NCBI GenBank assembly: GCA_905234185.1
Contig: CAJOGC010000005.1
Location: forward strand, 936 to 64,935
DNA: 64,000 nucleotides
Origin: an uncultured Alphaproteobacteria bacterium
GTDB lineage: Bacteria > Pseudomonadota > Alphaproteobacteria > Rs-D84
Direction of reading: 5' to 3'
Shown here: positions 1 to 13,387 of the stretch, in pieces
How the letters are laid out: each line of letters opens with the position of its first letter
Position numbering within the stretch: position 1 is the stretch's first letter
Program-made: the position numbers and the translations under genes
The notes under the pieces: generated by a model
Told to the model about the DNA's origin: nothing
What the model saw: only the letters and a program-made list of their open reading frames with translations
Databases searched by the model: none

Positions 1-1371
1 AATAGATGCGAACAATGTCGACGGCAACGATGTTAACCCCGTGCAACCATAAAATGTCGCAGAAAACTGCGGAATTGCGCCACTTATTACCGGGAATATT
101 TTACCCAGGTCGCCATCAATCGACGCAACCTTTGCCTGGGTCCCGCCCGATGACTTATAAAACGATATCGCCGCGTCGTTTGTTGATGTGCTGTATCCCG
201 TGGCGGCGCCGCCGAATCGGACGGTGTGTGCACCCGCGGATGGCCACGAACATGTGTATATGGTTTGACCTGTCGATACCGCCGTCCGGGTTATTGTTTG
301 ACCGGAAAGCGTGCCATGGTTGGATGTGTTCTGGGTTAACGTGCCACCATCACCGCAATTAACATAGAATGTCCCCGTCGCGGTCATTGTGAAAACCAAA
401 CTTGTCGCATCGGACGTGGTCGTGACGTGGAACTTATCCTCGGCACAGGTGCCACCGATATCGAAATATCCAGAATCGCATGTCCAGTTACATGTCCCGG
501 CGACCCAGGACGCGTTCGCGGGCAATGTGCCAGAACACCCACATGAAACACGATTCGTGCCGGACGTGGATGTATTTTCGTTGCTGTACCCCCAATCTGA
601 TTCAAACCCAGTGATATATTGGCTTGTCCCCGCCGGGCAAGTGGTGGCAAGTTGCGTGTTGTAAAATGTTTGATACCACATGTTGGCGCTGGACGAAGAA
701 CCCGGGACAATAGTGCTTGGGAATGTTGTTGGCGGAATATACCCGGTCATATTCGTGCAACCCAAAAATGTGCGGTAAAACATATAACTTGTCTTCTTTG
801 CGGACGATGTGTCAACAGATGCGAACAATGTCGCCGGCAACGATGTTAACCCTGTGCAACCATAAAATGTTTCAGCAAACATATAACTTGTATTTGTTGC
901 GGACGATGTGTCAACAGATGCGAACAATGTCGCCGGCAACGATGTTAACCCTGTGCAACCATAAAATGTGTCGAAAAACATATTACTTGTATTTGTTGCG
1001 GATTGTGTGTTAATGGTACTGAACAATCCCGTCGGCAATGATGTTAACCCCGTGCAACCATAAAATGTGTTCTGAAACATATTACCTGTATTTGTTGCGG
1101 ACGATGTGTCAACAGATGCGAACAATGTCGCCGGCAACGATGTTAACCCACTGCAACCAGAAAATGTGTAGTAAAACATCCTGCCTGTATTCTTTGTAGA
1201 CGATGTGTCAATAGATGCGAATAATGTCGACGGCAACGATGTTAACCCTGTGCAACCATAAAATGTCTCATTAAACCGCGGAATTGCGCCACTTATTACC
1301 GGGAATATTTTACCCAGGTCGCCATCAATCGACGCAACCTTTTCCTGGGTCCCGCCGCTTTCTTTATAAAA
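1..1371 (-). CDS. Continuation of the repeat-rich surface-protein gene in a different frame. It carries DUF285-like 33-aa tandem repeats (FYGCTGLTSLPATLFASVDTSSATNTSYMFAET) and a second copy of the N-terminal beta-rich module. It is open to the window edge, so partial, and offset by one nucleotide relative to 1296..1769
   Basis: Hand translation of the minus strand with codons at plus positions 3k+1..3k+3 gives an uninterrupted reading frame across the whole 99-bp repeat array and into region 5..640. That region is a protein-level paralogue of the module encoded at 1400..1700 (KFHVTTTSDATSLVFTMTATGTFYVNCGDGG... vs KFTVTTTSDATSLVFTMTATGTFYVDCGDGG...). No minus-strand ORF with a stop is listed here, consistent with it running off the edge. 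Confidence 0.55.
718..1262 (-). repeat. Tandem array of about 5.5 units of 99 bp, with unit starts near 718, 817, 916, 1015, 1114 and 1213. It lies inside the coding sequence and each unit encodes one 33-aa DUF285-like repeat
   Basis: Direct reading shows 'agatgcgaacaatgtcgccggcaacgatgttaaccctgtgcaaccataaaatgt...' recurring with exact 99-bp period. Units are 85-95% identical. The outer units at 718 and 1213 and the copy at 5..60 are more diverged. Confidence 0.85.
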
Positions 1372-1769
1372 GCGACGGTTGCAGTTGTGCTGTATCCCGT
1401 GGCGGCACCACCAAAACGCACTGTATGTGCACCCGCGGATGGCCATGTGCATGTATATGTGGTCACCTCCGTCCCCGTCCGGGTTATGGTCTTGCCGGAA
1501 ATTGTGCTACCGGTTGTTGTGCCGCTCTGACTTAACGTGCCACCGTCACCACAGTCCACATAGAATGTCCCGGTCGCGGTCATTGTGAAAACCAAACTTG
1601 TCGCATCGGACGTGGTCGTGACCGTGAATTTAGATGTTTCACACTGTGTGCCGTCACCCAAAACATCAATCTGGGTGCCGGTGCATGCCGCAAACGCCGT
1701 CCCCATCGACAGCGAAACAAATAAAGACGCAAAAATCGCAAAAAGTAAGTGTTTTAAACGGATTAACAC
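1296..1769 (-). CDS. N-terminal part of a secreted repeat surface protein. Contains a signal peptide (MLIRLKHLLFAIFASLFVSLSMGTAFA) and a Thr/Gly-rich beta-type module. The ORF as sequenced stops at 1296 after a frameshift
   Basis: GTG start at 1769 is preceded by AAGGAGG. The N-terminus is hydrophobic. The C-terminal 30 aa (…KKAAGPRKRLRRLMATWVKYSR*) are out-of-frame relative to the homologous copy at 60..200. Confidence 0.6.
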   Translation of the reverse strand: MLIRLKHLLFAIFASLFVSLSMGTAFAACTGTQIDVLGDGTQCETSKFTVTTTSDATSLVFTMTATGTFYVDCGDGGTLSQSGTTTGSTISGKTITRTGTEVTTYTCTWPSAGAHTVRFGGAATGYSTTATVAFIKKAAGPRKRLRRLMATWVKYSR

Positions 1770-2136
1770 TGTTTTTCGCCTCCTTCCTTTTTTACACCTT
1801 GATGGAACCATACAAAATATCAGAAAGTCGTTCAAGCATAAAAAAACATTTTTTATGATTTTTTTTCGATTGACACATTTTTTGGGGGGGCTGGTTTCTG
1901 TTTTTGGTGGACACACCCCATTGTGGGACGGGCAATGCGTCGACTGTGCGTCATATCGGCGCAGGCCGGTATTCATCCGCTTTCGCTTATGCTACAGCGA
2001 GACTTCGCCCCCCCCCTCCTTGCCAACGAAAGGTAATTTAAACTCCGCACTCTATATCATCAAAACCAATGTTAACTAAGTCACATGGTCCAGTAAGAGA
2101 ACGTGTCCGGCCACACCACGGAAGCAGTTTTTTGTG

Positions 2137-2322
2137 TCCTAACAAAATAAATACCCATCTTGCGACGGGTATTTGGTCTTCAAAACGTTCATTAACGTTT
2201 GCTAATTCCGTTCCCTCCACCCGCGGTTGCGGGCGTCGCCCGGAATGACAATTTTGTTGTTCCAACAAAATAAATACCCATCTTGCGACGGGTATTTGGT
2301 TTTCAAAACGTTCATTAACGTT
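2137..2322. terminator. Two direct copies of a ~64-bp element (2137..2200 and 2259..2322). Each contains hairpin ATACCCATCTTGCGACGGGTAT followed by a T-run. Copy 2 adds a second hairpin TTTTCAAAACG-N8-CGTTTTGAAAA that overlaps the rpsI stop. Acts as a bidirectional rho-independent terminator
   Basis: Inverted repeats with flanking T- and A-runs on both strands. The copies are separated by a GC-rich palindrome (cccgcggttgcggg). Confidence 0.6.
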
Positions 2323-2845
2323 TTGAAAACTGGGTTGAACGACGTGCCTTGCGAACACCATAGTGTTTACGTTCAACGACACGACTGTCGCGGGTAAGAA
2401 AGCCGGCGGCTTTCAAAACCTTACGCAGATCTGGTTCGGCTTTTTCCAATGCTTTGGAAATACCGTGTTTAACGGCACCGGCCTGACCCGACAAACCACC
2501 ACCCAAAACCATGCAAACGGCATCGTATGCGGTTTCGCGTTTTGTGATGTTAAATGGTTGTGCGATAATCATTTGCAGCACTGGGCGACGGAAATATTTT
2601 TCCACCGGGGTGTCATTGACAATGATATTACCCTTGCCCGGAACCAAATAGACACGTGCAATGGAATCTTTACGTTTTCCGGTTGCATATGTTGCGCCCG
2701 TCAATTTTGCGGATGCTGTCGCAGTTTTTGCCGCGGCTGCGGTTGTCTTTTTCGCAGGGGCTTCTTTTTTAACGGCTTTTGTAGCCGCAGTTTTTGTCGC
2801 GGTTGCTTTTTTGGCCGTTGTTGCTGTTTTCTTTGCTTCTGCCAT
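2315..2845 (-). CDS. rpsI: 30S ribosomal protein S9 with a ~45-aa N-terminal Ala/Lys/Thr-rich extension
   Basis: C-terminal 130 aa show typical S9 (…[19 protein letters not shown]…[18 protein letters not shown]). TAATG overlap with rplM. Confidence 0.9.
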
Positions 2846-3318
2846 TATTCACCCCTTTTGTTTTTACGATTCAGTGACGCAAAATCAATAACGACCGGAT
2901 TTTGCGCGGCATGCTTGTGTTCGGCGCCCGCATACACATGCAATTTTGTCAAACGCTGGTTCGCCAAAGCGACCGTTGTACGGCGGCCCATCATGCGTTT
3001 TACAGCGTTGGTCACCAATTGCGTTGGTTTTTCATCGCGCATTTGGCCCAATGTGCGTTCCTTGGTCGAACCCGTCCACAAAGAGTGCCAAAAGAATTTA
3101 TCTTTATCGGCCTTGTGCCCGGTCAATGCGACCTTGGACGCGTTAATAATGATAACATGATCACCACAGTCCATGTTTGGTGTCCATGTTGGCTTGTTCT
3201 TGCCACGCAGGATGTTCGCAGTAAATGCCGCCAAACGACCCAGTGTGCAATCGGTTGCGTCAATCAGATACCATTTGGCATCTAATTCACACTTTTTTAA
3301 CGATTTTGTCGTTGCCAT
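2845..3318 (-). CDS. rplM: 50S ribosomal protein L13
   Basis: 157 aa with L13 signature sequence. Conserved rplM-rpsI order. Confidence 0.9.
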
Positions 3319-3430
3319 TTTTCTAACCTTTTTTATGTTTTTGCGGACACATTATGCATGCACCCAGCACAAAAGTCAAGAAAAATCAATGCGGTATTAT
3401 TATACCATACCGTGGCACGGGCGCAGAATT

Positions 3431-3463
3431 CCATTCGCTGGCGAATGGGTGTCACGAAGTGAC
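3431..3463. repeat. Compound hairpin element CCATTCGCTGGCGAATGG + GTGTCACGAAGTGAC. Same family as the elements at 63513..63658 and 63697..63840
   Basis: The 15-mer GTGTCACGAAGTGAC occurs at 3449, 63533 and 63718. Each is preceded by a CC(C/A)TTCG…CGAAGGGG-type hairpin. Confidence 0.6.
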
Positions 3464-3844
3464 ATGCTCGTGGTGATGAAATTTCTGATTGTCGATTTCT
3501 GATTTATGATTGTACAGAGCCTATGTCCCAAGAAATCAAGTGCCATCCAATCAGAAATGACACAAGACCGTCGAAGAATGGTTATCATAGGAAAATATAC
3601 TGTTTGCATTTGTGAATATTTTACTATAAAATGTGTTCTGAGTTGGTGATTTGCCAACTTGGGGACTAAGAAACCTCGCGCGAACTGTCAGAGATGACAT
3701 AAAAAATCCAATCACAAATGTGGTTGGAGAGTCGCGAATATACTGAATAAGCGATGACAATGTTTGCGTTGTTTCTTAGCTCCAACCACTCTCGATATTC
3801 TCTTGGGTGGTTTTTTGTTGAAACAGATAAAAGGAGAAAAAACA

Positions 3845-4045
3845 ATGCCAACAAAAAGACCCGTTGCCGACGAAACACTTGCCCAGTTAATTGAAGCAAT
3901 GTATGATTTTATCCGCAAACACCCAAAATATGTTATGCCAATTCACGATATTTATGCACTTTACGATATTGCCACCGTTGAATTCAGCAGAACAATGGGA
4001 TTGATGGCCAAGACGTTAAAAGAATTAGATAAACCAAAGAAATAA
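3845..4045 (+). CDS. Small hypothetical protein (66 aa)
   Basis: ATG preceded by AAAAGGAG. It ends at a terminator shared with convergent argS. No recognisable domain. Confidence 0.4.
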   Translation: MPTKRPVADETLAQLIEAMYDFIRKHPKYVMPIHDIYALYDIATVEFSRTMGLMAKTLKELDKPKK

Positions 4046-4072
4046 AAATCGCCCAATCGGGCGGTTTTTACA
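4045..4072. terminator. Bidirectional rho-independent terminator (CGCCCAATCGGGCG + T-run) between the small ORF and argS
   Basis: Hairpin plus flanking A- and T-runs. Confidence 0.6.
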
Positions 4073-5786
4073 TTTCGCGCGGAACGGTCAATCCCATTAA
4101 ATCGATTGCCGTGGCCAGTGTATCACGGGCTACGCGCACAATGTGCAACCGCCCCGCCCTGGTTTTATCGTCAATATCGTCGCGCATAATCGGACAATTG
4201 TGATAGAAAGTATTTATCAACTGACACAAATCATACGCATAGTTTGCAATTAAATCAGTCGCCCGGTTATCAAACGCGGTCAGAACAGTCCGTTCAAAAT
4301 CCATAATCTGGATAAGCAGATTGCGTTCATCAACGGTCAATTTATGGTTTACGATTTCTGATTTCTGATTTGTTTCGGCCTTTTTCAGAATGCTGTTCAA
4401 ACGAACGGCGGTGTAAAGTATGTATGGACCGGTGCGCCCTTCGAATGATGTGACAGAATCCGGATCAAAGATATAATCGGAACGTAAATCATGCATTAAA
4501 TCATTAAACTTTAATGCAGCCAATGCGATTTCATCAATGGTTTCATCGTCTAATTTTTTGCCCGATTCCGCAACGCGCGCACGCGCGGCAACGCGTACCA
4601 TGTCAATAATGTCATTCAATCCGGCGGCGTTCCCGTCGCGCGTTTTAAATGGCTTGCCATCGGAACCATTTATTGTGCCGTAACCAATATGTTCCAATGC
4701 GTCGGCCGGGAACATATTTAACAATTCTGCAACACGGAACAACTGTTCAAAGTGTAACGATTGACGTTTGTCCGTCAAATATATGACTTTATCAGGGTTA
4801 TCGGTAATCTTACGATAATACAGTGCCATAATATCTGTTGCGTCATACGGAACTGCGCCACGCGAATTATAGAACATCACGGGTGGCATTGGTTTATTGT
4901 CTGTATCGCGTTTTACAATGATGATTTCGGCTCCGTCGCTTTTTACCAACAGATTCTTGTCGCGAATCATTTTCTCAACGGGTGCTGTATATTTTGCTGC
5001 GTTTCGTTCACCCAAATCATTATCAAACGGAACAATGTTTAATGATTTTACAGTTTTATTCATAGATGCCAATGAAATCGGCATAAAAATATTGTATATC
5101 GCATTATACCCCGCATGACCCTGCTGTAATTCCGCCGTAATCATTTGCGCATGTTCCAAAAATGCTGTGTCGGTTTTTGCCAATGCCGCAGCAGATGGAT
5201 AGTATGTGTCTAATTCAGCCGGATCAAATGTGTATTTGGAATAATCGCCGTCTGGGTCAAAATTCGATTGAAAGAACGGCCAATCAGGGTGCAAACGTTC
5301 AATCCATGCGATAACGAATCCCATAGAACGCCCCCAATCACCCATGTGATTATAAGAAATCATTTTGTGTCCCAAAAAGCGTCCCAAACGATACAGCGTG
5401 TCGCCAACAATAGATGTGCGCAAATGACCAATGTGTAACGATTTGGCAACATTATATGCACCGTAATCCATATCGATTACCAATGGTTTGTCTGCGGTAA
5501 TTTGTTCTGGTGCGGCGACGTTTTTCCATATAAAATCATCGCGTAATTTAATATTAATAAATCCCGGCCCGGCAACTGACGCGTTTTCCACAAAATCCAA
5601 TTCTGCCAGTTTTGCGACATAGTCGGTGGCTAATTCGCGCGGATTTTTGCCCGCCGATTTGACATTAACCATCGCGACATTAGTAGCAAAGTCGCCAAAT
5701 TCGCGATTGCGTGGCGATTCCAGGTTCACCGTTGCCCCTAACTTTTCATTTATCTTATCGGATACATATTTATAAAGATTCATCAA
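4068..5786 (-). CDS. argS: Arginyl-tRNA synthetase
   Basis: 572 aa. HIGH-type motif SLHIGHLRT. Class I ArgRS architecture. Confidence 0.92.
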   Translation of the reverse strand: MMNLYKYVSDKINEKLGATVNLESPRNREFGDFATNVAMVNVKSAGKNPRELATDYVAKLAELDFVENASVAGPGFINIKLRDDFIWKNVAAPEQITADKPLVIDMDYGAYNVAKSLHIGHLRTSIVGDTLYRLGRFLGHKMISYNHMGDWGRSMGFVIAWIERLHPDWPFFQSNFDPDGDYSKYTFDPAELDTYYPSAAALAKTDTAFLEHAQMITAELQQGHAGYNAIYNIFMPISLASMNKTVKSLNIVPFDNDLGERNAAKYTAPVEKMIRDKNLLVKSDGAEIIIVKRDTDNKPMPPVMFYNSRGAVPYDATDIMALYYRKITDNPDKVIYLTDKRQSLHFEQLFRVAELLNMFPADALEHIGYGTINGSDGKPFKTRDGNAAGLNDIIDMVRVAARARVAESGKKLDDETIDEIALAALKFNDLMHDLRSDYIFDPDSVTSFEGRTGPYILYTAVRLNSILKKAETNQKSEIVNHKLTVDERNLLIQIMDFERTVLTAFDNRATDLIANYAYDLCQLINTFYHNCPIMRDDIDDKTRAGRLHIVRVARDTLATAIDLMGLTVPREM

Positions 5787-5800
5787 TAATACCCCACAAA

Positions 5801-7081
5801 TTATATCGGTAAAACAACGCGCACGCGCAAACCGCCCAAATCGCTGTTTTCCAGGAATATTTGTCCGCCGTGGTTTTCAATCGCGGTTTTCGCGATGGAT
5901 AATCCCAGCCCAGTTCCGCCGGTTTTTGCACCACGTGCTTCATCCAGGCGGACAAACGGACGCATTGCGTCGGCTTTTTTGTTATCCGGGATGCCGGGGC
6001 CGTCGTCTTCTATGATAATCTCTACCTGGTCTGGGGTATCGATTTCTGTGATTTTTATCGTCTTTTTGGCGTATCTTGCCGCGTTTTCAATAATATTCGC
6101 GAATGCACGCGCCAATGCCATTGGGCGCGCATAGAATTGTGCCGGCGTGTCCGGGAAATCGGTAAGAATCTTCTTTTTCGGCGCGGCATCACGCGCAGTG
6201 CGCAATAACATTGATGGCAATTCGGTGACCTGTTCTATTTCCGGCATTTCCCCACGCGCGAACGCCAGATATCCGTTAACCATTTCCGTCATGCGATCGA
6301 TGTCGCGCAATAATTCATCTTTTTCTGCGGTTTCTGTTTCAACCGCCAAACGCATCCGGGTAAGCGGTGATTTCAAATCGTGACTGACTGCGTTCAACAT
6401 GTCCGTGCGGGTACGATTATAACGATCAAGACGTTCTTTCATAGTTATCATAGCAGATGCTGCTTCGCGGATTTCGCGTGATCCCGATGGTTCAAATCCC
6501 GGTGCGTCCAGACCACGGCCAAAACGGTTTGCCGCCCGCGCAATGCGACGAATACTGCGTGTGTGCAACACTATGAACGGTGCAACCAAAATGCTTACTA
6601 TCAAAATAGATGCGATTAGCCATATAAGAAAAACTTCGGCACTGGTTGAATAAATTCGATGCATCGAAACCCCAAAAGTCGCAACGCGACCATCATTTGT
6701 CGGGACATCAATTTGGACAGAACGTTTGCCACGATTAATATATATATTGGCGCGCTGATTTAGTCGCTGTTTCAATTGATTCGACAACGGTCCCGCAATC
6801 ATCGAATGATTGTCATCATGTTTCGGTCGTGACATCGTATCGTTTACCGCCACATTAATACCAACATCGCCAGCCATTGTGTCCAATGCCACCGTGTTTT
6901 GGTCATTTATAAATTTCATCATTGTGGATATTTCACCGGCCAATGAACGCGCCATGGTCGCGTGTACGCGTTCCCAGTGGTTCCCAAAAAACACATTTGC
7001 AACAATAGTTAACGACACCACCAATGGCAACAAAACCATTAATATTGTGCGCCAAAGAAAACTGCGGGGCATTATTTTCAT
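5801..7081 (-). CDS. Two-component sensor histidine kinase of EnvZ/ChvG type (2 TM segments, HAMP, HisKA, HATPase_c)
   Basis: H-box HDLKSPLTRM and G-box GTGLGLSIAK. Two N-terminal hydrophobic segments. Confidence 0.85.
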   Translation of the reverse strand: MKIMPRSFLWRTILMVLLPLVVSLTIVANVFFGNHWERVHATMARSLAGEISTMMKFINDQNTVALDTMAGDVGINVAVNDTMSRPKHDDNHSMIAGPLSNQLKQRLNQRANIYINRGKRSVQIDVPTNDGRVATFGVSMHRIYSTSAEVFLIWLIASILIVSILVAPFIVLHTRSIRRIARAANRFGRGLDAPGFEPSGSREIREAASAMITMKERLDRYNRTRTDMLNAVSHDLKSPLTRMRLAVETETAEKDELLRDIDRMTEMVNGYLAFARGEMPEIEQVTELPSMLLRTARDAAPKKKILTDFPDTPAQFYARPMALARAFANIIENAARYAKKTIKITEIDTPDQVEIIIEDDGPGIPDNKKADAMRPFVRLDEARGAKTGGTGLGLSIAKTAIENHGGQIFLENSDLGGLRVRVVLPI

Positions 7082-7085
7082 TGTT

Positions 7086-7733
7086 TTACTCCGTTATTTT
7101 ATCGTCATGTGAACCATGGTCTATAATTTTATAGCCACGGCCACGAACAGTTATTATATCCAGATTTGATAATACACCATTTAATTTTGTGCGCAAGCGT
7201 TTTGCAACCATTGGTGCTGCAGATACGATGTTGCCCATAGGTGTGGTTAAATGTACTAATAATTTTTTTTCTTCACCAGACAATGCAAACAACCTTGAAC
7301 CGGTTCCAGAATCAACAAAAAACTCATTATCGGCAAAAATCAAGCCCTTTGGCAATTTTATTGGGGCATCAGTGGTTTTTATTATGTTATTCAGGCGCAG
7401 TATTAATTCGCGCAACTGAAACGGCTTTGCCAGATAATCGTTCGCACCACCAGAAAGCCCCGCGATAGCGTTTTCTGGCCCCGTCATTGCAGTTAACATT
7501 ATTACCGGCGTTGTATCGCCACCCGCGCGCAGGTTCTGTAAAAATGTTAATCCGTCCAAGCCGGTCATCATGCGGTCCAGCACTATGGCATCAACATGTA
7601 TTCTGTTTAATATTTCGCCACCATGTTCAGAGTCAAAGGCAGAAACGACGGCAAACCCTTCGGCACGCAAACCACGTGCCAAAGCCATATTTAATGTTTC
7701 GTCGTCGTCAATAATAAGAACTGTTTTATTCAT
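7086..7733 (-). CDS. OmpR-family response regulator. It is in an operon with the kinase downstream
   Basis: Receiver domain with DDD…D…K. C-terminal winged-helix (…VRGRGYKI). Start chosen at MNKTVLIIDDDE. Confidence 0.85.
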   Translation of the reverse strand: MNKTVLIIDDDETLNMALARGLRAEGFAVVSAFDSEHGGEILNRIHVDAIVLDRMMTGLDGLTFLQNLRAGGDTTPVIMLTAMTGPENAIAGLSGGANDYLAKPFQLRELILRLNNIIKTTDAPIKLPKGLIFADNEFFVDSGTGSRLFALSGEEKKLLVHLTTPMGNIVSAAPMVAKRLRTKLNGVLSNLDIITVRGRGYKIIDHGSHDDKITE

Positions 7734-7797
7734 GTTGCATGGTTCGTTTTTTGTCGTGTCGCGACATATGCGCATTACGCCACGCACATGGCGACCA

Positions 7798-8718
7798 TTA
7801 TTTTCCCAATGGTCCAACCGCGTATTCGCCCGGCTGGATAGTCATTATACCGCCGTTTGGCCCGGTCATATCTGCATCATCTGTCGCTGCGTGGAACTTT
7901 AATCCAGCGGTTGCAAATTCGGTCTTGAACAATGCGTACCCCGTGCCACCACCAGTGGTCGGTCCCTGCATCCCTAACGAATAATAGCCACCCAAAATAC
8001 CGTAATCCAAATCAATATAATCTATGCTGACCAACAATGAGACATTGCTAAGCCCGTCACTGGTCATATTGCATGTGAATTCACGATTAGATAATGTGGC
8101 CTGGGAATTAACGGGAATCACAATATCCATAACTGTCGGTTCGCATACGCGTGATATACCGTTGACCAACATTTCATATGTCATACCAACGGTTGCCTTG
8201 GATAATCCGGTTGAAACACTAACCTGGGAAATTGTAGCCTTAGGAATTTTGACCAATGCATTGGCAATTCCACTGCGCACAGGAAAAGAAATGCCGGACT
8301 GCAAACAGTCGCGTGAGAACGGGTCCGCTTCACATATGTATACACGCGAATGAGAGTTCATCATGAACATGTTCGCCAGACTGTTAAACAAAAACGTGCG
8401 CGTAATACGGTCATTCAGTTTTGTACAACCAAAATTACGACATATTATCATCGGACGATCCGCAAACATCACCCCAGGATGAGCGGCGGATTCGGCCGCA
8501 CGGGCATCGATTATGTTTTGATCGTAATTAAGACTGTCGGCGCGTTGCATAAATTCGGTTTCTGGAATAAAATTCGGATCGTCAGGGTACGCATAGTACG
8601 ACTGAACCGGTGTCTCGGTATAGATTGTTTGGAAATTATCATATTCAACAAATTCTTCGGCGTGTGCGCTAAATGTGCCCCAAACCGCCAGAATAGCTGC
8701 AAAACCTAATTTACGCAT
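7798..8718 (-). CDS. Secreted hypothetical protein (306 aa, signal peptide MRKLGFAAILAVWGTFSAHA)
   Basis: Long ORF with cleavable signal peptide. No recognisable domain. Confidence 0.55.
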   Translation of the reverse strand: MRKLGFAAILAVWGTFSAHAEEFVEYDNFQTIYTETPVQSYYAYPDDPNFIPETEFMQRADSLNYDQNIIDARAAESAAHPGVMFADRPMIICRNFGCTKLNDRITRTFLFNSLANMFMMNSHSRVYICEADPFSRDCLQSGISFPVRSGIANALVKIPKATISQVSVSTGLSKATVGMTYEMLVNGISRVCEPTVMDIVIPVNSQATLSNREFTCNMTSDGLSNVSLLVSIDYIDLDYGILGGYYSLGMQGPTTGGGTGYALFKTEFATAGLKFHAATDDADMTGPNGGIMTIQPGEYAVGPLGK

Positions 8719-8858
8719 GGCAAAACCCTTTATCTCTCAGATAAATATTAAAACAATCGTGGGGGCTGTGTCAAAGCAAAAATATTTTTATTGAAAATTA
8801 TAGTTTGTTTGTTCTATAAATTACCGTAGAGATATTAATTAAGGCAAGGTGACAAATA

Positions 8859-9518
8859 ATGGTGGATATAATAATTACAGGCGAAGCGGGTAAATTGCAC
8901 GCGGTGTATCATAAATCTGAAACGCCGGGGGCGCCATTGGCGGTCGTGTTATCCGGAAATCCGCGTCAAAAACATCATATGAACGACCGTGTGTCATATG
9001 CAATGTTTCGGGCATTTATGGATATCGGTTTTTCTGTTGTGCGGTTTAATTATCGTGGGGTAAACGATTCCGATGGCTCGCTTGGAACGACAACTGAAAA
9101 CATGTTAGATATCGCGACAGTGATTGATTGGATTCAGAATAAAAACGAAGACAGCGACAAAATATGGATCGCCGGACACGGCTTGGGGGCGTGGTATGTA
9201 TTGCAAACCATGATGCGCCGTCCAGAAATTTCTGGTTTTGTTCTGGTTTCCCCCGACCCGTCTATTTCTGATTATTCATTTTTGTCGCCACGACCGAATC
9301 GCGGATTATTGCTTCAGGGGGCGGCGGAATCTGATGATGCACGGGCATTTTCAGAACATTTGACACATATATTAAAACGCCAGGCACAAATAGATTTGGA
9401 AACAATACGGATAAAAAACGCAGATTGTGAATATAGTCAACCGGCAGATCTGCGCCAGATGTATAATGACCTAAAGGCGTATGTCGGTCGCGAAAACGCA
9501 GAAAATAAGTTATTGTAA
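8859..9518 (+). CDS. Alpha/beta-hydrolase-fold protein (COG2945-like) with an atypical nucleophile-elbow sequence GHGLG
   Basis: 219 aa. Motif …[10 protein letters not shown]… appears where G-x-S-x-G is expected. Confidence 0.6.
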
Positions 9519-9519
9519 A

Positions 9520-10509
9520 ATGAATCAAAAAGAACGATTTTTGGATCCAACTGTGCCAGATGAGATGGCGGCGACGATTCGTCCTAAGACACTGGCTGAT
9601 TTTATTGGACATGATGGGTTAAAGCAAAACCTGTCTGTGTTTATTGCTGGCGCAAAATCGCGTGGTGAAGCAATGGATCATGTTTTGCTTTATGGTCCCC
9701 CGGGATTAGGTAAAACGACATTGGCGCATATAGTCGCAAATGAATTGGGAACGAATTTTCGTACGACTGCGGCACCTATGCTTACTAAACAAGGTGACTT
9801 GGCGGCGATTCTGACCGCATTGGAACCGATGGATGTTTTATTTATTGATGAAATACATCGTTTGCCAACCGCCATCGAAGAAGTTCTGTATTCTGCGATG
9901 GAAGATTTCAAATTAGATATTATGTTGGGCGAAGGTCCGTCGGCCAAAAGCGTTCGTATCGATCTGCCGCCGTTTACATTGGTTGGTGCGACAACACGTA
10001 CCGGATTATTGTCGAATCCATTGCGTGACAGGTTTGGAATTGATTTGCGTCTTTCGTTTTATTCGCCGTCAGATTTGGCAAAAATTATTAAACGCAGTGC
10101 TGGTATTTTGGGAACGGAAATAGACGACGAAGCCGCATTAATGTTGGCGCAAAGTTCACGTGGCACGCCGCGTATTGCGAACAGATTATTGAAACGCGCA
10201 CGCGATTTTGCAGCGGCAACGAACGGACAAAAAATCACCGTGGAAACCGTAAAAACCGCCCTGTTCCAGTTGCATATTGACGCATCGGGTTTAGATGAAA
10301 TCGATCGCGAATACATGCTGACAATTGTGAAAAATTATGCCGGTGGCCCGGTTGGAATTGACAACTTGGCGGCGGCATTATCGGAACCTGCGGATACAAT
10401 AGAAGATGTTATTGAACCATACCTTATGCAATTGGGGTTTGTACAACGCACACCACGTGGTCGTATTATAACTGATTCTGGGTACGAACATTTGGGATTG
10501 AAAAAATAG
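9520..10509 (+). CDS. ruvB: Holliday-junction branch-migration ATPase RuvB
   Basis: Walker [13 protein letters not shown]+ plus winged-helix architecture. No ruvA upstream. Confidence 0.92.
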
Positions 10510-10577
10510 TTTACGCTTTATTAACAATATGTTATGTGCGGTAAAAAACCGGGCATGTTTTTTATGGAGAAAGAAAA

Positions 10578-10976
10578 ATGAGAACATTCAGATACAATTT
10601 TTCAATTGCCTATGCGGACACAGATGCCGGTGGCATTGTATATCACGGGCGATACATTGAAATTGCGGAACGCGCCCGCATGCAGATGATGCGTGGGATT
10701 AAATTGCCGGCGGGCGATATGGGGTTCGTTGTCCGCGAATTGTCCATAAAATATATGCACCCTATGCATTTGGCCGATGATATCGTTATCGAAACAGAAA
10801 TTATAAATGTCGGTGGCGCGTCGATGGATTTACAACAAAAATTCGTGCATGATGGCATAATTTGTGCTATAATGAATATCACTGTGGTCTATATCGGTGC
10901 GGACATGCGCGCAAAACGCATACCCAACACGGTGGCGACACATTTAGATTCAACAAAGGAAGAAGGAAATGACTAA
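10578..10976 (+). CDS. ybgC: Tol-Pal-associated acyl-CoA thioesterase YbgC (4HBT fold)
   Basis: 132 aa with YADTDAGGIVYHG motif. Conserved position before tolQ. Confidence 0.8.
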   Translation: MRTFRYNFSIAYADTDAGGIVYHGRYIEIAERARMQMMRGIKLPAGDMGFVVRELSIKYMHPMHLADDIVIETEIINVGGASMDLQQKFVHDGIICAIMNITVVYIGADMRAKRIPNTVATHLDSTKEEGND

Positions 10977-11409
10977 CTTTTCATTATGGACATTGTTTAC
11001 CACAGATGTTGTTACGGCAATTGCATCGATTGTTTTGGTAATTTTTAGTATTTTATCATGGGCGGTAATCGTTGAAAAAATTCGCCTGTTCCGCACGGTG
11101 CGTCGTAATAAACCACACGGCAATCCGGATGCTGTAATTGCACCATTTGATAAAAACCTGTGGTTTTTGGCAATGGTCGCGGGGGTATCACCATTTATCG
11201 GTCTGTTCGGAACCGTATGGGGGGTTATGGATTCGTTTGCATCGATTGGTCTTAACCAGTCGGTCAGCATTGGTGTCATTGCACCGGGGTTGGCAACCGC
11301 GTTGGGTACAACTGCACTGGGACTTATTGCCGCAATACCGGCCGCGATTGCATACCAGGTATTTACGAAAAAATCCGACGATTTATACGAAAAATTGGGT
11401 GGAAAATAG
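10969..11409 (+). CDS. tolQ: TolQ/ExbB-family proton-channel protein (short, 146 aa)
   Basis: MotA/TolQ/ExbB C-terminal TM pair. Operon position. Confidence 0.78.
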   Translation: MTNFSLWTLFTTDVVTAIASIVLVIFSILSWAVIVEKIRLFRTVRRNKPHGNPDAVIAPFDKNLWFLAMVAGVSPFIGLFGTVWGVMDSFASIGLNQSVSIGVIAPGLATALGTTALGLIAAIPAAIAYQVFTKKSDDLYEKLGGK

Positions 11410-11411
11410 CC

Positions 11412-11816
11412 ATGTCCAGATTAAGACGCAGACGCGATACAGATGCACTGATTCAACTAACGCCGATGATTGATGTCATGACGGTGTTGCTGGCGGTGTT
11501 TATGGTGACGACCCCAATGATGACAAATGGTATAGATTTGGATTTGCCAAATGCCGGGCATTCGGCACTGACTGGAAACGACCACGCAATCCAAATAAGT
11601 GTCGATGCCAATGGGCAATACTATCTTAACGAAATGCAATTAGATGTCGATGATGTTGTGAAACGCGCAATTGCAATGCGTGGTGAAAACCCACAACTGG
11701 CAATTATGATAAATGGTGACAAACACGCGGATTATGGCGCGGTAATGGTCGTTATGGGTAAATTGAAAGATTCTGGATTCCAGCGCGTCGGTTTGCGAAC
11801 GAAAGCGGAAAAATGA
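11412..11816 (+). CDS. tolR: TolR/ExbD-family protein
   Basis: 134 aa with a single TM and ExbD-like periplasmic domain. Confidence 0.8.
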   Translation: MSRLRRRRDTDALIQLTPMIDVMTVLLAVFMVTTPMMTNGIDLDLPNAGHSALTGNDHAIQISVDANGQYYLNEMQLDVDDVVKRAIAMRGENPQLAIMINGDKHADYGAVMVVMGKLKDSGFQRVGLRTKAEK

Positions 11817-12571
11817 ACATCGATAAAACATTTTCTTTGGAAAATATTATGGTGTCGTTGGTTGGACACCTGGTTTTTATTGCGATTGCGGTCACATCGT
11901 TTGCAATATTGTTGGAACGAACAATGTTGATTGCGCCTGATCGTATCCAGATTATGGAAATAGACCTTAATTCGGTCACGGTGTCCGGCGAAGAAACCAA
12001 GTTGTTTAACACCAATCCGCCGGATGAGGCCAAAGATGATAAAAAACCAGCTGAATCGCCAGAGCCCGCGCCGGAACCTGAACCGGATGAAACACCGGTG
12101 GAGGAAAAACCCATAGAAACGCCGTCAATGACGGAACCAGAACCGGAAAAGAAAGTCGAAGAAAAAAAAACCGAAAAAGTCGAAGTTGAACCGGTGCCCG
12201 CACCAAAAAAGAAAATGGTGATTCGTGTTAATCGCGAAAGTGTCTCGTTAAATCGGACATTAAATGTTTCGGTTGTTGATGCGTTGCGTGTGGCGATGAC
12301 GCGTTGCTGGGTCATCGATAAAAATCGTTCCGATATTTCGGATATTCGCGCAGTTGCACATTTGACTATGCGAAAAAATGGGACGGTGCGCGATGTATGG
12401 TTTGAATCGGCGGCGCGTGCCGATGACGACCCTGCGTTCGCATATGTTTTGGATACTATTCGTGCGGCAATAAATACCTGTCAACCATTGCGTATGTTGC
12501 CGGAAAACGAATTTTCCAAGTGGGAAAAAATCCAGTTAACATTTTATCCCAACAGCGGGAAAGTTATGTAA
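11813..12571 (+). CDS. tolA: TolA-like protein (TM anchor, Pro/Glu/Lys-rich linker, C-terminal domain)
   Basis: Domain architecture and operon position. Linker is PEPAPEPEPDETPVEEKP…. Confidence 0.65.
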   Translation: MNIDKTFSLENIMVSLVGHLVFIAIAVTSFAILLERTMLIAPDRIQIMEIDLNSVTVSGEETKLFNTNPPDEAKDDKKPAESPEPAPEPEPDETPVEEKPIETPSMTEPEPEKKVEEKKTEKVEVEPVPAPKKKMVIRVNRESVSLNRTLNVSVVDALRVAMTRCWVIDKNRSDISDIRAVAHLTMRKNGTVRDVWFESAARADDDPAFAYVLDTIRAAINTCQPLRMLPENEFSKWEKIQLTFYPNSGKVM

Positions 12572-12603
12572 AAAAAAAATCGCGCCAGAAGGCGCGTTTT
12601 TAT
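12572..12603. terminator. Bidirectional terminator (A9-CGCGCCAGAAGGCGCG-T5) shared by tolA (+) and rnpB (-)
   Basis: GC hairpin flanked by an A-run and a T-run. Confidence 0.7.
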
Positions 12604-12611
12604 TGTGTGCC

Positions 12612-12937
12612 AGATTCACTATAAGCCGGATTCTGTACATGCCCCGGGCCAGTCATAGAACCATCCCGGGGTAGCGGACATAATTAATCTGCACCCGAAG
12701 TTACCAACGGGTGTCAAGCCCTCTACCCGCCACCTGACTGGGACATGTCAATTGGTGGCCTATTTGAAGTTGCTGCACATAGAGATTGGCCGTTTCAAAC
12801 GATTTTCATCGCATACGTTACTGTTCCTCTTATCGTCGGGTCACCCCGCCAGGCCGTTAGCCTGTATGCCGTCCCATGCAGTCCGGACTTTCCTCCGCCA
12901 CGTTGCCGCGACGGCTATGTCCCGTTCATCTGAACAT
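12612..12937 (-). ncRNA. rnpB: RNase P RNA (bacterial type A)
   Basis: Minus strand contains GGAGGAAAGTCCGGACTGCATGGGACGGCATACAGGCTAACGGCCTGGCGGGGTGACCC… and 3' ACAGAATCCGGCTTATAG (P4 halves AGGAAAGTCCGG / ACAGAATCCGGC). Boundaries are about ±15 nt. Confidence 0.8.
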
Positions 12938-12974
12938 GTTAATAATAGTTTATAAATATTGATTTTCAAGTATT

Positions 12975-13187
12975 TTAATTTTCGCCCATATGACGCGCAT
13001 TGTTCAATGCGTGGCGCAAAGATTGTGTCGCGATTTCACGAATTTTGCCCACAAAGGCACGCATGTTCATTGCGTCCGCGATACCATCGCTAAAAATATG
13101 TGCTATATATTCTATTTGTGTTGGTGAAATTGTATAGACTTCGCTGGTTATTTCGCTTGTATTTAACTGTCGTACTGGTGTTCGCAT
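12975..13187 (-). CDS. Small hypothetical protein (70 aa), possibly HTH-like
   Basis: ATG preceded by AGGGGGGG (the C7 tract on the plus strand at 13192..13198). Weak sigma-region-4-like C-terminal helix pattern. Confidence 0.4.
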   Translation of the reverse strand: MRTPVRQLNTSEITSEVYTISPTQIEYIAHIFSDGIADAMNMRAFVGKIREIATQSLRHALNNARHMGEN

Positions 13188-13387
13188 ATCGCCCCCCCTG
13201 ATTTCAATTTTTCATACACAATATATCATATTTTTTATGCATTTTACATAAATATTTCATAAAAATCGTGTATTTAGCGAAATCCCCCCTTGCGCATGCC
13301 GCGATAGTGTATTATATCATAAAGTGACTTGACGGAAAGACGCAAAATTGCTATACATTTCCTGATAAAAAGACAAGGAAACAAGAA

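Follow-up and report, generated by a model that had tools for sequence, protein, structure and literature searches.

A 10-nt frame break in a predicted PARCEL-type repeat surface-protein gene of an uncultured gut alphaproteobacterium

Relation to described repeat proteins

PARCEL proteins are defined by repeats of about 25-26 residues and by dyad symmetry of the repeat-coding DNA (Roske et al. 2010, PMC2996958). The gene reported here lies on the minus strand at the edge of the window, by which we mean the whole 64-kb stretch of DNA that was analysed. Like PARCEL proteins such as LppQ of Mycoplasma mycoides, its product has tandem, sequence-variable repeats with the core ..DTSxxTNxxxMFxxxFxGCxxLT..., exceeds the cut-off of the profile TIGR02167, begins with a signal peptide and a lipobox-like N-terminus, and carries the repeats as modules in otherwise unrelated sequence; in both cases no function has been assigned. 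Unlike PARCEL proteins, it has a period of 33 aa (99 nt) instead of 25-26 aa, falls under the Pfam DUF285 cut-off, is encoded by DNA without dyad symmetry above shuffled controls, is built of reiterated modules in which a beta-sandwich domain and a Cys-rich linker alternate with the repeats, and belongs to a Gram-negative alphaproteobacterium.

The results of the profile searches showed a score of 51.7 bits against NCBIfam TIGR02167 (PARCEL repeat-containing surface protein; cut-off 30) over 6 stretches, and in each repeat unit the alignment to the 26-position profile stays inside 29 residues. Against Pfam DUF285 (PF03382) the window protein reached 17.2 bits, under the cut-off of 25, whereas its closest full-length relative, MBP5364090.1 (P0122, 1102 aa), reached 57.1 bits. 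The initial annotation had called the repeats DUF285-type; this is borne out by TIGR02167 and by the relative, but not by the DUF285 score of the window protein itself. It had also pointed to the LRR_5 profile (PF13306), for which the window protein gave no match at E <= 1; the relative P0003 reached 20.3 bits, under the cut-off of 27.7. As for dyad symmetry, the best local score of the repeat-coding DNA against its own reverse complement was 12.5, compared with 10.7 +/- 2.0 for codon shuffles, 34 of 200 of which reached it, and the repeat tract contains a single inverted repeat, 20 nt long and imperfect.

The other described class that comes close is that of the BspA-type leucine-rich repeat (LRR) proteins. 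The window protein is predicted to form a solenoid, which may be of the LRR kind: pLDDT was above 90 over the repeat region in the AlphaFold2 model, and all Foldseek matches of this model in the PDB were LRR proteins, with the BspA-type structures 4h09 and 4gt6 at the head. In addition, NCBI names MBP5364090.1 'BspA family leucine-rich repeat surface protein', and some homologues match PF13306. It is unlike them in its missing PF13306 match, in its longer repeat and in the weakness of the Foldseek matches, the best of which had an E value of 5.5e-3 and a TM-score below 0.2. The HMM results place the gene in the PARCEL/DUF285/BspA-like class, whose members are surface proteins with variable repeats. 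Its own family of surface proteins is large and uncharacterised, and within it the gene is nothing out of the ordinary; the unit that is reiterated, with beta-sandwich, solenoid and Cys-linker, is peculiar to this family.

Layout of the gene and its family

The region holds the 5' part of a gene whose Sec-secreted product is made of several modules and would be a protein of surface or adhesin type. Each module comprises a beta-sandwich of about 90 aa, a solenoid of 33-aa PARCEL/DUF285-type leucine-rich-like repeats and a Cys-rich linker. Its features, in the order in which they are read, are the following.

2297-2272 and 2174-2149, minus strand: terminator-like hairpins, each within one copy of a 72-nt direct repeat.
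1807..1835, minus strand: putative sigma-70-like promoter TTGAAC / 17 nt / TATGGT, read from the sequence.
1779..1785, minus strand: Shine-Dalgarno sequence AAGGAGG, 9 nt 5' of the start codon, read from the sequence.
1689..1769, minus strand: GTG start codon and the Sec signal peptide MLIRLKHLLFAIFASLFVSLSMGTAFA, after which comes A-C (translation).
1372..1631, minus strand: beta-sandwich domain of module A, copy 1, in the frame of the start codon, its 3' end cut by the deletion (homology to copy 2 and to the family alignments A2 and A3).
1371..1372, minus strand: junction of the 10-nt deletion, where the intact allele carries GACAATATCG (base-by-base comparison with the contig L001).
1296..1298, minus strand: premature TAA in the shifted frame, giving a product of 157 aa.
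1264..1371, minus strand: remainder of module A, copy 1 (FYKESGGTQEKVASIDGDLGKIFPVISGAIPRFNET), which only the -1 frame reads; in L001 it is in frame.
769..1263, minus strand: five tandem 33-aa (99-nt) PARCEL-type repeats FYGCTGLTSLPxxLFxxxDTSSATNTxxMFxxT (TRF, TIGR02167, AlphaFold).
640..768, minus strand: a sixth repeat of degenerate sequence, or a cap at the C-terminal end of the solenoid (FLGCTNMTGYIPPTTF...), kept in the homologue consensus.
436..639, minus strand: Cys-rich inter-module linker (CPAGTSQY...CNWTCDSGYFDIGGTCAEDK; translation).
55..435, minus strand: module A, copy 2, comprising the beta-sandwich and the cap at the N-terminal end of the solenoid that follows (direct repeats D2-D4 and D6; AlphaFold).
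1..54, minus strand: first repeat of the second array, which runs past the window edge and whose continuation is visible in L001.

The promoter candidate matches at 8 of 12 positions, which is under the scan threshold, and a promoter role for it 5' of the repeat gene is possible. The early end of the signal-peptide ORF (1769→1296) that the initial annotation had described is confirmed, with its GTG start, its ribosome-binding site and its TAA, and the identical start is called for the 615-aa product encoded in L001. The adjacent frame is likewise open to the window edge as described: there is no stop in the -1 frame from about 1443 to position 1, and by our own estimate the chance of such an opening over some 480 codons is roughly 1e-10. 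Of the five to six perfect 33-aa repeats that had been proposed, the number stands, as five plus the degenerate sixth, but the perfection does not, since TRF gave a period of 99, 5.2 copies and 83% matches over 755-1270. The second copy of the N-terminal module was found at 435-55, and the module-repeat-module layout is typical of the family. Pairs of module copies are 82-92% identical, and their spacing falls from 1209 to 1199 nt across the break. Within the 64-kb window no further paralogues were found, and an Rfam search of window positions 1-4200 gave no match.

The hydrophobic N-terminus ends in AFA-AC in the translation, and is followed by a short loop with two cysteines (ACTGTQIDVLGDGTQC) and then by the Thr/Gly-rich domain that is module A. 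FAAC fits a PROSITE-style lipobox pattern, as do 20 of 47 N-termini of homologues, and the lipobox-like Cys has a conserved partner Cys 15 residues on (14 between), an arrangement that recurs where the inter-module linker ends. A lipoprotein and a disulfide loop formed after cleavage by signal peptidase I are equally possible. Because of family resemblance only, the product may be located at the surface and act as an adhesin.

The AlphaFold model of window:1-435:- (pLDDT 95.3) places a beta-sandwich over residues 1-80 and then a solenoid cap. The beta-sandwich domain of module A, about 90 aa long, has no Pfam match in the window protein; this domain is covered by no Pfam model, nor is any solved structure close to it. 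The best match of the A3 profile in the PDB, to 4xed, was weak (E 0.22). Its motif is FYVDCGDGG, or FYVDWGDG in distant members, which we take to resemble the PKD motif WDFGDG; some homologues carry PF00801 or PF18911. At the position of the linker, PF07699 (Ephrin_rec_like) was matched in some homologues.

For the 615-aa protein 702 homologues were obtained, most of them unnamed metagenome proteins. With the module profile, 3,220 representatives of clusters built at 50% identity were matched, of which 741 had E <= 1e-30, and the largest family members reach 7,626 aa. The word 'giant' therefore holds for the family, while both the window gene and the gene on the other contig are seen only in part. 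When the GTDB species representatives were scanned with module alignment A2, 31 loci emerged. Nearly all lie in metagenome-assembled genomes (MAGs) that bear the label Candidatus Enterousia or uncultured Alphaproteobacteria and come from yak, buffalo and sheep (rumen or gut). The best match among the species representatives is 66% identical, and homologues in Candidatus Enterousia and rumen alphaproteobacterial MAGs reach up to 61-66% identity. At 29 of the 31 loci the family gene is one unbroken ORF, 420-3552 aa long and comprising 1-4 modules. Multi-module homologues such as MBP5364090.1 (1102 aa) and the ORF at L015 (3552 aa) are built like the window gene, with a signal peptide, a Cys loop, an A module, repeats and a Cys-rich linker, reiterated 1-4 times. 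The only broken genes are those at L031 (3356-3390) and L032 (2-166), where the breaks sit at local duplications of about 25 aa of repeat sequence; they look like repeat-induced assembly errors. No interruption is seen in the Enterousia-type homologues, in contrast to the window gene with its deletion of 10 nt and to its lineage, which also carries a TT insertion downstream.

The order Rs-D84 has genomes of about 0.75-1 Mb, and a dependence on other cells is probable for Candidatus Enterousia and its relatives (PMC12306168). The window gene would belong to a relative of Candidatus Enterousia in this order, an uncultured gut alphaproteobacterium with a reduced genome. With genomes below 1 Mb and a probable dependence on other cells, large modular surface proteins are plausible attachment factors. 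It is a good deal more speculative, and in our judgement unlikely, that the module defines a new class of giant reiterated adhesins, which would be the main organelles of host or partner attachment in genome-reduced Rs-D84 gut alphaproteobacteria and whose indel-broken alleles would reflect ongoing diversifying or on-off selection in animal gut populations.

The frame breaks

The rpsI protein of the window is also encoded on the ENA metagenome contig ERZ27234812 k119_656964 (L001; 138,657 bp). Compared with window positions 1-12845, it shows 0 mismatches, and the sole difference is the presence of 10 extra nt, GACAATATCG, between 1372 and 1371. With these 10 nt the gene reads in one frame and gives the 615-aa product P0121, which is recorded on 2 contigs (L001/L002). 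The peptide restored is ...STTATVATISFYKESGG...; the intact allele encodes ATISFYK, which fits the family motif AAISF, and in the family alignment I90 is at least 90% conserved and F92 invariant. Since the intact allele matches the conserved I90 and F92, the allele on the contig is taken as ancestral and that of the window as a derived deletion. MAFFT alignment of the two module copies likewise made copy 1 10 nt shorter than copy 2, precisely at the break. The shortfall that the initial annotation had located near 1372..1395 is thus the exact cause of the broken frame. Given that an independent assembly restores a single frame, a recent inactivating deletion or a consensus error is what is left of the possibilities it had listed. 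The collapse of a repeat, which was among them, does not fit, since on either side of the deletion the sequence agrees exactly with the intact allele, with no chimera.

Neither at the junction CCGTCGC|TTTTAT nor in the lost segment GACAATATCG is there a simple repeat, a homopolymer, a direct repeat or microhomology, and no slippery heptamer of the form X XXY YYZ was found where the frames overlap. The sequence of the paralogous module differs from that of copy 1 at the site of the deletion. Among the called genes of the indexed assemblies, none of the truncated products looked up (157, 226 and 506 aa) is on record; the protein P0002 (506 aa), found in NCBI and ENA records, corresponds exactly to the ORF that follows the break in the deleted allele. 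Exact-pattern scans of JGI metagenomes, including one with a tolerance of 0-10 nt at the site of the indel, gave no match.

A further break lies 69 nt past window position 1 (L001 12,915-12,925), where GGGGTTTTAAC stands in place of the usual GGGGTTAAC, which is present at this position in all the other repeats. Dropping the extra TT brings back the consensus CTGLTSIPS. This second break is common to the deleted and the undeleted allele, and P0002 and P0121 share there the C-terminal end ...FYGCTGF*. Past it, five more repeats and a second Cys-rich linker follow in L001 in another frame, over 295 codons to the end of the contig. No protein covering this sequence was found in a collection of 5.8 billion proteins, and its best match is its own paralogous module (75%). 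The window and L001 both end inside the gene, which would fit a third module copy that defeats assembly.

On these data the break in the window is a non-programmed deletion allele or a consensus error and not a regulatory switch, and it brings no mechanistic novelty. We think it somewhat more probable than its competitors taken together that it is a real and very recent null allele, a 10-bp deletion in a gene that was already decaying. The loss between 1372 and 1371 would remove the conserved '..TIS..' codons and shift the frame, so that translation would stop after 157 aa. The TT insertion 69 nt past the window edge would mean that the gene had been broken before, through ongoing decay or relaxed selection; the shared insertion suggests gene decay, which is plausible in a genome-reducing lineage. 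The two assemblies possibly come from one sample, and the shared second break is then not fully independent evidence. The frame is fully open past both breaks (481 and 295 codons), which fits a very recent mutation or an error. A polishing or consensus error in the source assembly of the window would look identical to a real deletion. That the 10-nt loss is an artefact of assembly, binning consensus or polishing, and that the organism has an intact frame of 615 aa or more, is a serious but distinctly less probable explanation. It accords with the presence of the 10 nt in an otherwise identical contig, with the lack of the truncated products among called genes, with contig ends inside the gene, which mark it as hard to assemble, and with the suspicious breaks with duplicated stretches near contig ends at L031 and L032, by which such genes appear error-prone in MAGs. 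Yet a clean loss of 10 nt with perfect flanks is atypical of short-read or de Bruijn-graph error, the module copy offers no explanation because it differs at the site, and P0002 is present in two databases. We infer the lesion to be of biological origin and not an error of the consensus, and the deletion is most likely a real strain-level polymorphism.

A phase-variable or frameshift-regulated gene, which the initial annotation had also entertained, fares much worse. For the indel to be one state of an on/off contingency switch of a surface protein is very improbable: in-frame and out-of-frame alleles do occur in otherwise identical backgrounds, the product is a repeat protein of surface type, and the tracts C9 (2008-2016) and G7 (1884-1890) lie upstream of the gene, but the bare junction provides no mechanism of reversible slippage, a loss of 10 nt is irreversible by slippage, the two assemblies do not differ in the upstream homopolymers and 29 of the 31 relatives are uninterrupted. 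Programmed -1 ribosomal frameshifting near GCT TTT ATA, by which both frames would be joined into a full-length protein, is hardly credible at all. A -1 slip of tRNA-Phe on C-TTT-T would indeed give ...TVAF-YKESGG..., like module copy 2; however, there is no heptamer to slip on, the intact allele shows that the ancestral gene needs no recoding, the slipped product would be without the conserved 'IS' of AAISF, and the relatives are read in one frame. Annotations should join the 157-aa and 506-aa ORFs into one gene for a PARCEL-type surface protein, flagged as frameshifted, and not keep them as two hypothetical proteins.

Upstream neighbourhood and antisense frames

The repeat gene lies downstream of rplM-rpsI (3318-2315, minus strand). 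The order argS-rplM-rpsI was found in L020 (RGIG10235) only, whose rpsI and rplM are 97% and 91% identical to those of the window, and there four other genes stand between rpsI and the family gene; among the loci compared, no clear ortholog of the window gene could be recognized by synteny. The rpsI gene of the window (S9, 2315-2845, minus strand) encodes an Ala/Lys/Thr-rich N-terminal extension of about 50 aa, and its alignment with the L020 relative is limited to residues 53-176.

A direct repeat of 72 nt, 93% identical between its copies (2129-2200 and 2252-2323), duplicates the 3' end of rpsI together with a terminator-like hairpin (AAATACCCGTCGCAAGATGGGTATTT, then a T-run), and the duplicated hairpin would thus form two tandem terminators between rpsI and the repeat-protein gene. 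The C9 tract, which is G9 on the strand of the gene, and the G7 tract, both as read on the plus strand, are 2 of only 3 G/C homopolymers of at least 7 nt in the 64-kb window and fall within 380 nt upstream of the repeat gene; their lengths gave no evidence of variation.

Long antisense ORFs run over the repeats in the window (e.g. 717-1013, plus strand). On the strand opposite to the gene in L001, ORFs of 87 and 56 aa are called at 12890-13153 and 13181-13351, where the tail of the repeat gene itself carries no annotation. All these antisense ORFs, in L001 as in the window, are probably spurious.
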